From: Candidatus Eiseniibacteriota bacterium
GTDB lineage: Bacteria; Eisenbacteria; RBG-16-71-46
Length of the DNA: 64,000 nt
NCBI GenBank assembly: GCA_016178725.1
Contig: JACOSV010000045.1
Span: 51-64,050 of the forward strand
Reading direction: 5' to 3'
This document shows, in pieces, positions 4,692 to 56,762 of the stretch. Every line of letters starts with the position of its first letter. Within the stretch, counting starts at the first letter, position 1. The position numbers and the translations under genes were made by a program. Below the pieces are notes generated by a model. That model had not been told where the DNA came from, ran no database searches, and saw nothing but the letters and a program-made list of their open reading frames with translations.

Positions 4692-5278
4692 AGCCGCGGC
4701 GGGCACTGTTCTGGAACGGGGCGGGCGCGCTGGTGCTGGCGTCCGCCTCGCCGCGGCGGGTCGCGCTGCTGCGGCAGGCGGGGGTGTCGTTCACGGTCGT
4801 GGATCCGGGGCCCGATCGCGACTGGCCCGGTGCGGCGGAGCCGCGCGTCGGCGTGCGCGCGCTCGCGCTCGAGAAGGCGCGCCGCGTCGCGGCGCGGCGC
4901 CCGGATCGGGTCGTGATCGGGGCCGACACCGTGGTCGTGCTGCGTGGCCAGCGGCTCGGCAAGCCGCACGACGCCGACGAGTCGGCCGCGATGCTGCAGC
5001 GCCTGCACGGCCGGACGCACGAGGTGTGGACGGGCATCGCGGTCGTGCGCGGCCACGAGACGCGCACCGCGTCCGAGATGACGCGGGTTCAGTTCGCGCG
5101 CATGAGCCCCGCGGAGATCGAGGCCTACGTGCGGAGCGGCGAGCCGCTCGACAAGGCCGGGGCGTACGGGATCCAGGGGCTCGCGGGCCAGTTCGTGCGC
5201 CGGATCGAGGGCGACTACGCGAACGTCGTCGGCCTGCCCGTCGCCCGCCTGCGCCAGATCCTGCGCGAGTTCGAGTGA
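4688..5278 (+). CDS. maf: Maf family nucleotide pyrophosphatase
   Basis: LASASPRR, ADTVV, DKAGAYGIQ, NVVGLP. Confidence 0.95.
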   Translation: MKPRRALFWNGAGALVLASASPRRVALLRQAGVSFTVVDPGPDRDWPGAAEPRVGVRALALEKARRVAARRPDRVVIGADTVVVLRGQRLGKPHDADESAAMLQRLHGRTHEVWTGIAVVRGHETRTASEMTRVQFARMSPAEIEAYVRSGEPLDKAGAYGIQGLAGQFVRRIEGDYANVVGLPVARLRQILREFE

Positions 5279-51225: not shown

Positions 51226-52247
51226 CGGCGCACCGGCCGGCGCGGGGCCGGCCCGCGTCGGGAGCGAAGCCGCGCCCGGGGCGCGCGGCCGCGCCGCACC
51301 GCCCAGCGCCCGCGGACATCCTGGTCGTCGGCTCGGTGGCGCTGGATTCGGTGCGCACGCCCTACGGCGAGGCCGAGGAGGCGCTCGGCGGCTCGGCGTC
51401 GTACTTCGCCTTCTCGGCGAGCCACTTCGCGCCCGTCAAGGTCGTGGCGGTGGTGGGCGAGGACTTCCCGGACACGCACCGCCGGCGCTTCACCGCACGC
51501 GGCGTGGACCTCACCGGCCTCGAGACCGCGGCCGGCCGCACGTTCCGCTGGCGCGGCGAGTACATGGCCGAGCTCGGCCACGCCCACACGCTCGAGACGC
51601 AGCTCAACGTGTTCTCGACGTTCCACCCGCGCCTCGACGCGCGGCATACCGGCTGCCCGTTCGTGTTCCTCGCCAACATCGATCCCGATCTCCAACTCGA
51701 GGTGCTGGGGCAGATGCGCGCGCCAAAGCTGGTCTTGAGCGACACGATGAACTACTGGATCGCGCGCAAGCCGGAACGCGTCGTGGACGTGCTGCGACGC
51801 GTCGACGTCGCGCTGCTCAACGAAGAGGAGGCCCGCGCGCTCTCGGGCGAGACGCAGCTCGCCGCGGCGGCGGACCGGCTCATCGAGGTCGGCGGCCGCG
51901 CGGTGATCATCAAGAAGGGCGAGCACGGCGCGCTCTTCCGCTCGCGCGAGGAGCTCGCGATCACGCCGGCGTTCCCGCTCGAGCGGCTGCGCGATCCGAC
52001 CGGCGCCGGCGATTCGTTCGCGGGTGGGTTCCTCGGCTGGCTCGCGCGCTGCGGCCGCATGGACCGCGAGGCGGTGCGCCAGGGGCTCGCCTGCGGCGCG
52101 GCGATGGCGTCGCTGGCGATCGAGGCGTTCAGTCCCGAGCGGCTGATCACGACGACACCGGAGGAGATCGCGCGGCGCGTGCGGGCGCTGCACGGAATGG
52201 TTTCGTTCGGTCTCGAGCCGCTATTCGACGATCGGAGCGGGGGATAG
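51222..52247 (+). CDS. PfkB family sugar kinase
   Basis: VGSVALD, LGGSA, DPTGAGDSFAGG. Confidence 0.92.
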   Translation: MTAHRPARGRPASGAKPRPGRAAAPHRPAPADILVVGSVALDSVRTPYGEAEEALGGSASYFAFSASHFAPVKVVAVVGEDFPDTHRRRFTARGVDLTGLETAAGRTFRWRGEYMAELGHAHTLETQLNVFSTFHPRLDARHTGCPFVFLANIDPDLQLEVLGQMRAPKLVLSDTMNYWIARKPERVVDVLRRVDVALLNEEEARALSGETQLAAAADRLIEVGGRAVIIKKGEHGALFRSREELAITPAFPLERLRDPTGAGDSFAGGFLGWLARCGRMDREAVRQGLACGAAMASLAIEAFSPERLITTTPEEIARRVRALHGMVSFGLEPLFDDRSGG

Positions 52248-52309
52248 CCGGGTCCGCGAGGGGTGTGCTAGTCTGCCGACGTATCGCCCCCAGTCAAGGA
52301 GGTGCGGCC

Positions 52310-53092
52310 CTGACCCTCGATACCTCGCGCATGTCATGGACGACCCGGGCGGAGGCCGCGATCCGCGCCCTCCGCGACGTCGACGGAGCCACGATCCAGC
52401 TCGAAGGGGACGAGATCCGCGAGATCCACGTCCTGACCCATTCGAAGCGCCCGGCGAAGCAGATCGTCCGCGATGTCCAGACCGTGCTCATGACGCTGTT
52501 CAACCGCTCATTCGATTACCGCGTCGTCTCGGTCGCCTACACGAAGAGCGGTGAGGGCGGATCGGACCGCGCGCCCACCCCGGGCGGTGCGGCCGCTGCG
52601 AGTGACGCGCGCGTGATGGACCAACCGCGCGAGGCGCGCGGCGACTCCGACTTCGAAACCGAGTCCGCCGAGCGCATCCGCTTCGCCAGCGTCAATCTGT
52701 TCGTCTCCGGGCCGCGCACGCAGGCGCAGGTCGAGCTCCGCTGGAAGGGGCTCGCGCGCATGGGCAGCGCCTCCGGATGGAGCTCGCGCGACGGCGCCCA
52801 CCCGCTGATCGCGCAGGCGACGCTCGCCGCGGTCCAGGAGTTCCTCGCCGGTGAGACCGCGTTCAACGTGCAGGCGGTCGAGTTCGTGCGCATGGGCAGG
52901 CGCCGGGTGGCGCTGGTCGCGCTCGCGCTGCTCGCCGGCCGCGAAGAGCGTCCGCTCTTCGGCAGCTGCGCCGTGGAGCAGGACGCGCAGCAGGCCGTGG
53001 TGCTGGCGACGCTCGCGGCACTCAACCGCGTGATCGGCGGTCTGCCGACGCGCGAGCCGACCGAATACGTGTTGAGACCGACATCCAACTAG
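52310..53092 (+). CDS. hypothetical protein (C-terminal halves reminiscent of LeuA allosteric domain)
   Basis: SD AAGGAGGTG 5 nt before in-frame CTG 52310 (alternative ATG 52331); EIHVL..KQIVRDVQ; QATLAAV and LATLAALNR. Confidence 0.8.
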   Translation: MTLDTSRMSWTTRAEAAIRALRDVDGATIQLEGDEIREIHVLTHSKRPAKQIVRDVQTVLMTLFNRSFDYRVVSVAYTKSGEGGSDRAPTPGGAAAASDARVMDQPREARGDSDFETESAERIRFASVNLFVSGPRTQAQVELRWKGLARMGSASGWSSRDGAHPLIAQATLAAVQEFLAGETAFNVQAVEFVRMGRRRVALVALALLAGREERPLFGSCAVEQDAQQAVVLATLAALNRVIGGLPTREPTEYVLRPTSN

Positions 53093-53193
53093 GAGGAAGC
53101 GGAGCGAGCCATCCCATCCATTGATGCGAAGCGGACCCACCTGCAGGAGTCATACGTTTCCCAGCAGAATCCGTGAAGAAGGAGGTGGGCTCT

Positions 53194-53247
53194 GTGGACG
53201 ATCTCATCATCGAGATCATCAACTTCCTGGGAAAGGCCGGCTGGTAA
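53194..53247 (+). CDS. 17-aa micropeptide MDDLIIEIINFLGKAGW
   Basis: SD AAGGAGGTG 6 nt upstream of GTG; mostly C/G-ending codons; TAA stop. Confidence 0.7.
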   Translation: MDDLIIEIINFLGKAGW

Positions 53248-53355
53248 TCAGGCCACCCTCGGAATGATGCGTTAGGGATCAGGCTCCAAGATGGGTGTCG
53301 GTCTCGTTTCTCTTTCCGAATCGTCCCTTCCGATCCTTCCAGGCGACAGGAGCTC

Positions 53356-54684
53356 GTGAGCGCATCGCTCGCCCCCCGCCACCCGCGCCTCTTCCGCGTC
53401 TACTACGCCGCGGTCGTCGCGGCCGCGGTGGTCGCCTTCGTCGCCTTCACGCCGTCCGCCGGTCGCGTGCCGCCGGCGACCGCGATCGTCGTCCTCCTGC
53501 TCATGGGGTTCAGCGAGGCCACCGCCGTGCCGCTGCCGGGCGGCGGCTATGTCTCGGTCGGCGCCGTGCTCGACCTCGCGTGCCTCATCATCCTCGGCCC
53601 GGTCGTCACCGCGTGGCTCAACGTCGTCGCGACGCTGCTCACGCAGCTCGTCGTGCTGCGGAAGCCGCTGGTCAAGGTCGTCCACAACATGGCCATCTTC
53701 GGCCTCACGGCTTTCGCGGCCGGGTTCGCGTTCATCGCCGCCGGGGGCCGGCCGGGATCGCTCGATCTGCGCCGCGACCTGCCGGCGCTGCTGGCCTGCG
53801 GCGCCGTCTACTTCCTCTGCAACTCGGTGTTCGTCTCGACGGTCATCGGCCTCACGACCGGCCCGAGCATCTGGCGCTCGTGGCAGCGCACGTTCCTGAA
53901 CGGGCTGCTGCACCACCTTTCGTTCATCGCGCTCGGCACGCTGATCGCCGTCGTCTATCTGGGCGCCGGGCCGGTCGCCCTCGTGCTGTTCGCGATCCCG
54001 TTCCTCGTCGCCCGCCACTCGTTCCAGCTCTACGTCGAGATCCGCACCGACCTCAAGGACTTCGTCCGCGCGCTGGCCGAGGTGCTCGAGGAGGTCGATC
54101 CCTACACGCGCCAGCACTCGGTGCGCGTCTCGGTCTACGCCGTGCGCATCGCGCGCGGGCTGCGCATGAGCGAACGCGAGGTGGACGAGGTCGAGTACGC
54201 GGCGCTGGTGCACGATCTCGGCAAGATCGGCCCGCATCACCAGCACATTCTTCAGAAGCCGGGGTCGTTGTCGCACGAGGAGCAGCGCACGCTGCGCGGC
54301 CACCCGGCGGCGGGCGCCGAGATCGTGTCGCGCGTGCGGGCGCTGCGGCGCCCGGCCGAGATCGTGCGCAGCCACCATGAGCGCCCGGACGGGCGCGGTT
54401 ATCCGTTCGGTCTCATGAGCCGCGACGTGCCGCTCGGCGCCCGCATCCTGAACGTCGCCGACGCGTTCGACGCGATGACGTCGGACCGTCCGTACCGCCG
54501 CGCGCTCTCGGTGGACTCGGCGCTGCGCGAGCTGAAGCAGGGGGCGGGCACGCAGTTCGACCGCGATGTGGTCGAGTGCGTGCTGCGGCTCCAGGCCGCG
54601 GGACAGTTCCCGCTCGTCCCGAGCCCGAGCAGCGAGGAGTTGCGGCTGCTGCGGCTCCACCCGCGCAAGGCGCAGCGCGCCTGA
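53356..54684 (+). CDS. membrane-anchored HD-GYP domain phosphodiesterase
   Basis: about 6-7 N-terminal TM segments; DPYTRQHS, HDLGKIG, HHERPDGRGYP, VADAFDAMTSDRPYR, GTQFD. Confidence 0.92.
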   Translation: MSASLAPRHPRLFRVYYAAVVAAAVVAFVAFTPSAGRVPPATAIVVLLLMGFSEATAVPLPGGGYVSVGAVLDLACLIILGPVVTAWLNVVATLLTQLVVLRKPLVKVVHNMAIFGLTAFAAGFAFIAAGGRPGSLDLRRDLPALLACGAVYFLCNSVFVSTVIGLTTGPSIWRSWQRTFLNGLLHHLSFIALGTLIAVVYLGAGPVALVLFAIPFLVARHSFQLYVEIRTDLKDFVRALAEVLEEVDPYTRQHSVRVSVYAVRIARGLRMSEREVDEVEYAALVHDLGKIGPHHQHILQKPGSLSHEEQRTLRGHPAAGAEIVSRVRALRRPAEIVRSHHERPDGRGYPFGLMSRDVPLGARILNVADAFDAMTSDRPYRRALSVDSALRELKQGAGTQFDRDVVECVLRLQAAGQFPLVPSPSSEELRLLRLHPRKAQRA

Positions 54685-55709
54685 TGCGCTACCGCGACGC
54701 CGGCGTCGACGTGGCGCGCGCCGACCGGCTGAAGCGGGGGATCGGCGCGGCGATCCGCGCCACCTGGGGGCCCGGGGTACGGCCGATCCCGGGTGGCTTC
54801 GCCGGCGTGACGACCTGGCCCGCGGCCGACGGCGCGCTGCTCGCCGCGACGATGGACGGCGTCGGCACCAAGCTCCACGTCGCGATGGCGGCGGGCCGCG
54901 TCGGCGACGCGGCGGCGGACCTCGTCTACCACTGCGCGAACGATCTTCTCGTCCACGGCGCCCGTCCGCTCGCGTTTCTCGACTACGTCGCGCAGGCGCG
55001 GCTCGAGCCCGGAGTGATCGAAGCGGTCGTGGCCGGGCTCGCCCGAGCGTGCGGCGACGTCGGGGCGGCGCTCCTCGGCGGCGAGACGGCGGAGATGCCG
55101 GACACCTACGTCGCCGGCGTCGTCGACGTCGCCGGCTGCATGATCGGCGTCGCCGATCCGCGTCGATTGCTCGACGGAAGCGCCGTGCGCCCCGGCGACG
55201 CGCTGCTCGGGCTCGCGTCGGCGGGCCTCCACACCAACGGGTTCTCGCTGGCCCGCCGCGTGCTGGAGACGTCGGGCCTGACGCTCGACAGCCCGCTCCC
55301 GGGCGGCGCGGGCGAGACCGTAGGCGAGGCCCTGCTCGCGCCGCATCGCTGGTACGGCCCGGCGCTCACGCCCGTGATCGCGGCGGGGCGCGTGCACGCG
55401 CTCGCGCACGTCACCGGCGGCGGCATCGCCGGCAACGTCGTGCGCATCCTCCCCGAAGGCTGCCACGCGCGTGTCGTCGCGCGCGCATGGGCGAGGCCCG
55501 CGCTCGTGCGCTGGATCGTCGAGGCGGGCGCCGTGCCCGAGGACGACGCGCGCGAGGCGCTGAATCTCGGCATCGGCATGGTGCTGGTGTCGGCTCGCGA
55601 AGGGAAGGACGCGCTCACGCGCGACCTCGAGCGCGCCGGCGAGCGCGTGTTCGCGATCGGCGAGGTCGTGAGCGGCGCGCGCGGCGTGACGTGGACGGAG
55701 GGGGCATGA
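54684..55709 (+). CDS. purM: phosphoribosylformylglycinamidine cyclo-ligase
   Basis: YRDAGVD, DGVGTK, GGETAEMP, GLHTNG, HVTGGG. Confidence 0.95.
   Translation: MRYRDAGVDVARADRLKRGIGAAIRATWGPGVRPIPGGFAGVTTWPAADGALLAATMDGVGTKLHVAMAAGRVGDAAADLVYHCANDLLVHGARPLAFLDYVAQARLEPGVIEAVVAGLARACGDVGAALLGGETAEMPDTYVAGVVDVAGCMIGVADPRRLLDGSAVRPGDALLGLASAGLHTNGFSLARRVLETSGLTLDSPLPGGAGETVGEALLAPHRWYGPALTPVIAAGRVHALAHVTGGGIAGNVVRILPEGCHARVVARAWARPALVRWIVEAGAVPEDDAREALNLGIGMVLVSAREGKDALTRDLERAGERVFAIGEVVSGARGVTWTEGA

Positions 55710-55727: not shown

Positions 55728-56762
<1,035 letters not shown>

Follow-up and report, generated by a model that had tools for sequence, protein, structure and literature searches.

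The 64,000-nucleotide (nt) stretch of Candidatus Eiseniibacteriota DNA analyzed here (contig JACOSV010000045.1; "the window" refers to this whole stretch) carries three co-oriented genes at positions 52310-54684: one for a cytoplasmic protein that we call P1, a 17-codon open reading frame (ORF), and one for a transmembrane (TM) protein in which a MASE9 domain is joined to an HD-GYP domain. The small ORF is enclosed by a structured leader RNA, and, judging from sequence comparison, P1, a motif of this leader, a hydrophobic small ORF, and a TM-HD-GYP protein recur together in three phyla. An earlier note on the window, based on its letters and a list of its open reading frames, had put the three genes forward as a candidate peptide-signaling module, and all three are present as described. 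Its view that this is not a characterized system also holds, as P1 and the leader are without a match in Rfam, Pfam, or NCBIfam, and no description of the module was found in the literature searched on MASE9, HD-GYP, and small proteins (supplements lay outside this search). The same search returned no literature linking HD-GYP to the Eisenbacteria.

Conservation within the phylum was read from 58 loci in 58 Eisenbacteria genomes (L001-L058). Apart from a few Clostridia, all genomes used in this study are metagenome bins, and one unpublished genome (G026) is counted in search tallies only, with no claim depending on it. The sequencing runs listed comprise four DNA runs of a single groundwater study and none of RNA. 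P1 is present in 39 of 41 relatives and in 116 of the 151 genomes sampled across the phylum. A same-strand HD-GYP gene follows P1 at 48 of the 58 loci, and at 46 of those 48 a small ORF led by a Shine-Dalgarno (SD) sequence lies between the two. This is the arrangement that the earlier note had suggested looking for among P1 homologues, and the flanking genes co-occur with it; together with the recurrence in Clostridia and Acidimicrobiia described below, these counts uphold the trio as a conserved module. Two loci (L024 and L054) are truncated by a contig edge. The remaining eight have no adjacent HD-GYP gene, purM standing directly next in seven of them and other DNA in L051, and only one of the eight (L049) has the small ORF.

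In the window, the trio lies between a pfkB-family kinase gene, which ends at 52247, and purM on the 3' side. The order pfkB-P1-small ORF-HD-GYP-purM is the ancestral synteny of the phylum and not an insertion, which runs against the initial description of the trio as interrupting a housekeeping run. The HD-GYP stop codon and the purM ATG share one base (TGATG, 54682-54686), as they also do in L025; purM is thus probably in the same transcription and translation unit as the HD-GYP gene and probably translationally coupled to it, and the longest listed purM ORF (from 54576) is, for the same reason, probably too long. A simple scan returned zero sigma-70-like sites and zero terminators in 51900-54900, where a promoter is still possible; the extended -10 element that had been suggested at about 52266 is therefore without support.

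The small ORF varies as a translated gene would. In the window's family it has 16-18 codons and ends in G-[KR]-A-G-W. Entropy was calculated for each codon position over 78 distinct small-ORF sequences: across the last five codons, the first and second positions score 0-0.84 bit, and the third reaches 1.04-1.62 bit in the codons for G, K/R, A, and G, all four of which are degenerate; the final TGG is invariant (0 bit at all three positions). The Ala codon of this ending is GCC in 28 cases, GCT in 22, GCG in 20, and GCA in 1; Lys is encoded by AAG (55) or AAA (2), and the Arg that alternates with it by CGC (12), CGG (5), CGT (3), or AGA (1), so that the Lys/Arg exchange requires several base changes. 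Stop codons are likewise mixed (TAA 55, TAG 17, TGA 6). Variation dominated by the third position indicates that the small ORF is translated and that selection acts on the protein and not on the RNA. With this substitution pattern and its presence at 46 of 48 loci, the 17-residue frame proposed earlier goes well beyond chance and appears to be a genuine coding gene. The coding pattern for GKAGW followed by a stop has a single occurrence in the window's genome.

The product can be described as a family of related short peptides. The genus peptide is predicted to be a hydrophobic and acidic helix ending in G-[KR]-A-G-W. Over the whole set, small-ORF length ranges from 8 to 50 codons with this ending kept; within some lineages the GK[AG]GW unit is doubled or tripled in one peptide, and other Eisenbacteria lineages carry 1-5 residues beyond the Trp. 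Deeper in the phylum the hydrophobic helix and an aromatic, Gly-rich end are retained while the details vary, and some of these peptides have 20-25 residues, mostly hydrophobic. The 20-31-residue forms from deeper Eisenbacteria, Clostridia, and Acidimicrobiia resemble a single-pass membrane helix that continues into a tail rich in Gly and in aromatic and basic residues. No leader and no double-glycine cleavage motif was recognized in the peptide. One clade (L021, L022, L025 at 4920-5069, and L027) has 45-50 codons with three GK[AG]GW units and acidic linkers, and the L056 peptide contains three GGHAWW units.

From the last P1 codons to ∼50 nt before the HD-GYP start, the DNA is conserved beyond what coding explains. 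The corresponding RNA of the window (53071-53308) has a minimum free energy of -96.7 kcal/mol (z -3.58), and 0 of 200 shuffled sequences were as stable. The ends of this leader are predicted to be held together by a closing helix, GAGACCGAC/GTCGGTCTC, which was examined in a 49-sequence alignment (MAFFT and RNAalifold) with column shuffles (n = 500) and slid-partner controls. Across the 49 sequences, 97.5% of cells are paired, with 27 doubly changed cells as opposed to 8.0 ± 5.1 in shuffles (0 of 500), and pairing drops to 29-48% when the partner strand is slid. In the alignment of the whole leader, the ends and the anchors were placed well and the variable inner hairpins were not. The motif GCGRAGC occurs in two copies in 56 of 56 leaders of 205-275 nt; RNAalifold pairs both copies with one another, every pair being invariant.

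Directly 3' of the second GCGRAGC copy stands GGACCCACCT, which is complementary to the SD of the small ORF and its spacer. This pairing was scored in leaders from Eisenbacteria, Clostridia, and Acidimicrobiia; 34 were tried, 7 gave no candidate under the automatic rules, and 27 were scored. The cognate anti-SD/SD duplexes have a mean of -14.39 kcal/mol, vs. -10.5 kcal/mol for non-cognate pairs, and 0 of 5000 permutations among these related sequences were as low. Because SD spacer bases covary with their anti-SD partners in deep lineages and between phyla, the SD-sequestering helix appears to be conserved and supported by covariation at those depths. The SD of the small ORF is thus one strand of a sequestering helix, and synthesis of the peptide itself would be gated. 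The earlier note had seen the identical strong SD on the first two genes, and AAGGAGGTG is indeed found at both; it had missed that the small-ORF copy is a helix strand within an RNA of ∼230 nt.

The leader has no match in Rfam 15 at E ≤ 1 (window positions 51800-55200); that interval has two Rfam matches only, one to a miRNA and one to a snoRNA model, both beyond the limits of the leader and scoring far under the gathering threshold. Seven Clostridial and Acidimicrobiial loci were also without a leader match in Rfam, including to the c-di-GMP-I and c-di-GMP-II riboswitches (c-di-GMP, cyclic dimeric GMP), and an assignment of the leader to either of these classes or to another Rfam riboswitch was rejected for want of a covariance-model match. 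A ZMP/ZTP riboswitch (RF01750) was detected at L183 971-1057 (minus strand; 65.5 bits, E 1.2e-8) and is unrelated to the module. Genome-wide, pairs of GCGRAGCG spaced 8-32 nt apart number 13 in G000 vs. 24 in a reversed control, with similar results in five other genomes; the pattern is unspecific in GC-rich genomes and gives no answer on leaders elsewhere in genomes that have P1 only.

Relatives of P1 with 30-36% identity occur in Clostridia and Acidimicrobiia, and the rest of the module accompanies them. The locus of Flavonifractor hominis reads, after the P1 homologue, motif, hairpin, an SD that pairs with an anti-SD, a 27-codon ORF with basic residues at its start and a hydrophobic helix after them, and then a 440-residue TM-HD_5 protein. 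A P1 homologue was found in 8 of the 151 genomes of the Clostridial order sample. Leader, 26-31-codon ORF, and TM-HD-GYP gene are present in all seven complete loci (7/7), the eighth being cut at a contig end, and the TM domain of the Clostridial HD-GYP protein was detected in 5 of the 151 genomes, all among the 8 that are P1-positive. Three Pfam-less ORFs upstream in the Flavonifractor locus were considered as further parts of the module and set aside, as they are not conserved in other Clostridial loci. A gene for a DUF5317 membrane protein lies 3' of the HD-GYP gene in three close Clostridial loci (L138 5143-5673; L130; L132), the only three in which its presence can be read, since the remaining fetched loci end inside the HD-GYP gene; Clostridial neighbors are otherwise not conserved.

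The Acidimicrobiia present a different layout, in which P1 and the HD-GYP gene are divergently oriented; a hydrophobic ORF of 29 codons precedes the latter on the HD-GYP strand, and the motif is found there as well. The SD covaries with an anti-SD that lies 5' of this motif. This divergent layout implies that the HD-GYP transcription unit includes the leader and the small ORF, with P1 linked in either orientation. In both Clostridia and Acidimicrobiia, the peptides have a membrane-retained-looking helix with basic N-terminal residues. Two further features were observed at Acidimicrobiial loci: a gamma-glutamyltranspeptidase gene after P1 in both loci scanned (L129 3575-5167; L133 3582-5132), and a second HD-type gene in tandem behind the TM-HD-GYP gene (L129 3-554 and 1240-1800).

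The third gene of the window is predicted to encode a membrane-embedded hydrolase of c-di-GMP (or cyclic GMP-AMP) of the MASE9-HD-GYP type. Its product matches Pfam HD_5 (E 1.6e-35) and MASE9 (31.0 bits against a Pfam cut-off of 24.3; 33 bits in the genome search). The catalytic motifs are intact, with HD at residue 286, HHE at 340, and GYP at 348, and six TM-like windows fall within residues 12-214, in agreement with the 6-7 TM helices and intact HD-GYP domain described at the outset. Nothing sets the enzyme apart from a family already described: it shares MASE9 and the HD/HHE/GYP motifs with TM1467 of Thermotoga maritima and HdgA of Streptomyces venezuelae, as named in the passages of the defining paper covered here (bioRxiv 10.1101/2021.11.05.467447). 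There, the domain's defining authors suggest that MASE9 binds a ligand inside the membrane; according to the same passages, the domain has no known ligand, and the one studied member, HdgA, was poorly expressed (bioRxiv 10.1101/2021.11.05.467447).

P1 agrees with its first description as a cytoplasmic protein of unknown function: it has no match in Pfam (E ≤ 0.1) or NCBIfam and no TM-like window. Its frame is open over 52265-53092, and AAGGAGGTG is followed after 5 nt by CTG at 52310, the first ATG being at 52331. Where the start would lie by homology, CTG, GTG, or TTG is found in other Eisenbacteria, always 5-9 nt past an SD, which makes 52310 a sensible start. CTG is found there in the window and at least 18 other Eisenbacteria loci, with GTG or TTG in the remainder (L002-L032). 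Several of the loci with CTG have no in-frame ATG, GTG, or TTG ahead of the conserved P1 N-terminus. A conserved CTG start codon is unusual, and it would suit a protein kept at a low level.

An AlphaFold2 model of P1, built from a 15-sequence alignment, has a predicted local distance difference test (pLDDT) score of 79.7 and consists of two confident domains joined by a disordered linker (residues 74-112). In this model, the C-terminal domain appears to be a small-molecule-binding fold like that of LeuA regulatory domains, with Foldseek matches to those of LeuA and of citramalate synthase, whose ligands are leucine or isoleucine (E 4e-6 to 1e-4, 14-21% identity). With the regulatory domain of 2-isopropylmalate and citramalate synthases (1sr9, 3fig, 3f6g) it shares the same beta-beta-beta-alpha x2 fold; unlike those enzymes, P1 stands alone at ∼250 residues, with no catalytic barrel and a different N-terminal domain. 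The resemblance is one of fold only, as P1 has no match to the Pfam LeuA_dimer profile at E ≤ 0.1. The N-terminal domain is a small alpha/beta fold (model pLDDT 94.6); its likeness to the PrgK ring-building motif and to the MamM C-terminal domain has E ≥ 4e-3, and no function was drawn from it. P1 is the best candidate for a cytoplasmic sensor or regulator in the module.

The P1 family is large: a full scan gave 4118 representative clusters at E ≤ 1e-3, 2933 at 1e-10, and 739 at 1e-30, and a word-indexed search gave at least 1464 proteins at E ≤ 1e-5 among 8000 candidates scored. Among the 120 matches listed, none has a Pfam domain, and the named ones are almost all "hypothetical protein." The C-terminal peptide of P1 (…LRPTS, window 53071-53092) is conserved where the 5' strand of the closing helix is coding, and the C-terminus differs in a clade that has this strand after the stop codon (e.g., L090, L103); the RNA constraint thus seems to shape the end of the protein.

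Loss of parts of the module is also telling. In family f10, P1 is found in 0 of 32 genomes, and a MASE9-HD-GYP orthologue lies between pfkB and purM in 13 of 13; no P1, motif, or small ORF was found at the six f10 loci read. All six (L140, L141, L142, L144, L146, and L147) have TGGCA[CT]-N5-[GT]TGC before the HD-GYP gene, a site that we take to fit the sigma-54 promoter consensus. Five genomes that have P1 and no adjacent HD-GYP gene, G068 among them, gave matches to the catalytic domain only and none to the MASE9 part. Overall, every leader and small ORF observed is accompanied by P1; one such occurrence is without the enzyme, and the enzyme also occurs where both are absent.

Coordinates of the module's features in the window are collected in Table 1. 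In the Pfam scan, the neighbors of the trio are pfkB, purM, and a sigma-54 activator; the last (Sigma54_activat and HTH_8) is encoded just 3' of purM, at 55728-56762.

Table 1. Positions of the module's genes and RNA elements in the window.
Feature	Position	Strand	Basis or remark
P1 Shine-Dalgarno AAGGAGGTG	52296-52304	+	Read from sequence; SD 5-9 nt before homologous start in other loci
P1, two-domain cytoplasmic protein, uncharacterized	52310-53092	+	260 aa with start at CTG 52310; 253 aa with start at ATG 52331
Structured leader RNA, conserved, encloses small ORF	53074-53305	+	Fold statistics, consensus fold
Closing helix 5' strand GAGACCGAC, within last P1 codons	53074-53082	+	Predicted to pair with 53297-53305
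GCGRAGC motif, first copy	53099-53105	+	Two copies in 56/56 leaders of 205-275 nt
GCGRAGC motif, second copy	53126-53132	+	GGA-trailed version also in Clostridial and Acidimicrobiial leaders
Anti-SD strand GGACCCACCT	53133-53142	+	Predicted to pair with small-ORF SD and spacer
Small-ORF SD, AAGGAGGTG plus GG, 3' strand of SD-sequestering helix	53179-53189	+	AAGGAGGTG itself at 53179-53187
Small ORF, 17 codons and stop, ends G-K-A-G-W	53194-53247	+	GTG 53194 to TAA 53247; product MDDLIIEIINFLGKAGW
Closing helix 3' strand GTCGGTCTC	53297-53305	+	Predicted to pair with 53074-53082
MASE9-HD-GYP membrane phosphodiesterase (predicted), 442 aa	53356-54684	+	Own SD AGGAG at 53348-53352
purM	54684-55709	+	ATG overlaps HD-GYP stop (TGATG)

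The reading that we favor, which in our estimate is evenly balanced between right and wrong, is that translation of the micropeptide is gated and that the peptide works on the membrane phosphodiesterase or together with it, with P1 as the cytoplasmic sensor or regulator. Starting from what was observed (gene content and its conservation, a coding small ORF, helices in the RNA, and the P1 fold), a course of events can be proposed in which the binding partners, the ligand, and the direction of regulation are all conjectural. The folded leader would keep the small ORF untranslated until ribosomes terminating on P1 melt the 5' strand of the closing helix or, alternatively, until the structure is opened by a factor or ligand bound to the GCGRAGC motifs, and translation of the peptide would then be turned on. 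The peptide would be a small membrane-associated partner of the MASE9 domain and would tune the activity or stability of the phosphodiesterase, as small proteins do with membrane sensors. The target of P1 may be the RNA, whose two motif copies would match a dimer, or else the peptide together with the enzyme. A bolder version, which we put forward tentatively and which may well fail, holds that the leader is a new class of RNA switch answering a small molecule (e.g., a cyclic dinucleotide) or P1 at GCGRAGC, and that it gates a micropeptide serving as intramembrane ligand or subunit of MASE9 in one ancient circuit of at least three phyla.

Several observations weigh against this proposal. Two loci (L034 and L046) have the adjacent HD-GYP gene and are without the small ORF, L046 carrying another inserted gene. 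Conversely, G068 (L049) keeps P1, a leader with two motif copies, and the small ORF, and no MASE9-HD-GYP was found in its genome with the query used; in families f13 and f15, P1 stands alone. The genus peptide, at 16-17 residues of which 2-3 are acidic, is too short to span a membrane, and shorter forms exist: 12-13-codon ORFs (L015, L085) keep the G-[KR]-A-G-W end and the SD, and in G020 (L036, ∼4840-4866) the ORF has 8 codons, with the SD and, of the peptide, only the GKAGW end kept. Such 8-13-codon and short acidic forms are easier to reconcile with a regulatory leader peptide than with a structural subunit. For the RNA, the invariant pairs between the GCGRAGC copies show no covariation, which leaves that pairing a suggestion only; the anti-SD helix is nearly invariant within Eisenbacteria, its covariation coming mostly from deeper lineages and Clostridia; and the permutation counts overstate significance because the leader sequences are related. 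The fold matches of the P1 N-terminal domain are weak and generic (E ≥ 4e-3), with no RNA-binding signal. Finally, any contact of the peptide with the enzyme or with P1 is conjectural; a co-fold of the 49-residue L025 peptide variant with its own MASE9 domain scored 0.00, which gives no answer and is evidence neither way.

The short forms of the peptide bear on an explanation that we rate as rather unlikely, in which the small ORF is an upstream ORF encoding a regulatory leader peptide: its translation would remodel the leader and set expression of HD-GYP and purM, perhaps with pausing at G-[KR]-A-G-W, and the peptide itself would be functionless. Conservation in the window's family is indeed concentrated in the last five codons beside the stop, the end is kept while length varies over 8-50 codons and in the 8-13-codon versions, the ORF sits inside a long-range helix whose 3' strand precedes the HD-GYP start codon by ∼50 nt, and the stop codon of HD-GYP shares a base with the start codon of purM. 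The [KR]-A-G near the end of the peptide is, as we take it, reminiscent of the R-A-G-P end of the SecM arrest sequence. Against this explanation stand lineages that add 1-5 residues after the Trp, and Clostridia and Acidimicrobiia, where the C-terminus differs and the hydrophobic helix is conserved; arrest requires neither of these features. Some lineages also repeat the motif two or three times per peptide. The SD of the small ORF is itself sequestered, which would be unusual in that sensor upstream ORFs are normally translated constitutively; moreover, the HD-GYP gene has its own SD, and no conserved pairing was found between the ORF and the HD-GYP ribosome-binding site. A role of this kind and a functional peptide could both hold. 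SecM, TnaC, and MifM are the known comparison, sharing a short ORF upstream of a regulated gene and the strongest conservation at the stop-proximal C-terminus; unlike in those systems, no secretion or tryptophan logic is apparent here, the helix is conserved across phyla, and the C-terminal motif repeats.

The distribution of the parts invites another explanation, improbable in our judgment, in which P1 and the peptide are the functional pair, P1 binding, chaperoning, or modifying the peptide, and HD-GYP is a frequent neighbor or one of several targets. Leader and small ORF were in every case observed together with P1 and occur once without any MASE9-HD-GYP (G068), and in families f13 and f15 P1 is retained by itself; solved relatives with the LeuA-regulatory fold bind an amino acid, and the free C-terminal residue of the peptide could mimic such a ligand. 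However, the Acidimicrobiial small ORF is co-transcribed with HD-GYP and divergent from P1, co-occurrence of P1 with the TM-HD-GYP in the Clostridial sample is strict (8/8 vs. 0/143 with the queries used), and P1 has one Cys and belongs to no recognizable catalytic family. Very improbable, in turn, is an explanation along the lines of the agr/com analogy drawn at the outset, which finds no support, and in which the peptide would be an exported signal, or the precursor of a ribosomally synthesized and post-translationally modified peptide (RiPP), sensed from outside by an HD-GYP receptor after maturation by P1. As in agr and com, a small peptide gene adjoins the gene of a membrane sensor, and the K-x-G-W spacing is presumably comparable to the Lys-Trp cross-linked motif of streptide-type RiPPs. 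Unlike in agr and com, there is no AgrB-like or ABC-peptidase processing/export gene, no histidine kinase or response regulator among the conserved genes, and no leader peptide. No exporter, peptidase, radical-SAM, YcaO, or lanthipeptide enzyme or kinase is conserved, P1 and HD-GYP being the sole partners shared across phyla, and the Pfam scans of the neighbors contained no RiPP maturation enzyme of the radical SAM, YcaO, or LanM type, P1 itself having no known catalytic family. The peptide is without a leader or double-glycine cleavage site, its gene is single-copy, and its helix, with basic N-terminal residues, looks membrane-retained in two phyla.

Considered by its parts, the module combines two kinds of system already known: modulation of a membrane sensor by a small protein, and sequestration of an SD by a leader. 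What is new is the trio, a candidate RNA family, and a protein family. MgrB, SafA (with PhoQ), and KdpF, small proteins of the membrane by which sensors or enzymes there are modulated, share with the peptide described here a length of under 35 residues, a hydrophobic helix, and a gene beside that of a polytopic membrane signaling protein. They differ in having no sequence relation to it and in their partners, a kinase or pump where the partner here would be a c-di-GMP phosphodiesterase; the peptide gene here also lies in an SD-sequestering RNA and is linked to a third conserved protein. The nearest published concept found is the CD1980.2 family of Clostridioides difficile, which the portion of the source covered here describes as small membrane-associated proteins in c-di-GMP signaling gated by a structured leader RNA (PMC13724677). 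According to that portion, they are multicopy proteins of 58 residues that lack homologues beyond C. difficile, and their leader is a c-di-GMP-I riboswitch acting by transcription termination (PMC13724677). The leader described here, by contrast, has no Rfam match and its visible mechanism is SD sequestration, so that, as far as that account extends, the two systems are unrelated in sequence, RNA, and mechanism. In the passages covered, the MASE9-HD-GYP paper mentions no upstream micropeptide, leader RNA, or P1-like partner, and the word "peptide" is absent from its main text (bioRxiv 10.1101/2021.11.05.467447).

The analysis brings to light three previously unannotated elements: a 16-31-codon gene found across three phyla, an RNA structure that Rfam 15 does not contain, and a Pfam-less protein family with thousands of clusters. 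To our knowledge, the Eisenbacteria have no cultured members. The cultured gut Clostridia Flavonifractor and Intestinimonas carry the module, which makes it experimentally reachable. For MASE9, which has no known ligand in the passages of its defining paper covered here, the upstream micropeptide is a concrete candidate for what the domain senses or needs. If the gating model is true, the module would represent an RNA switch that controls a signaling enzyme indirectly, by way of a micropeptide.

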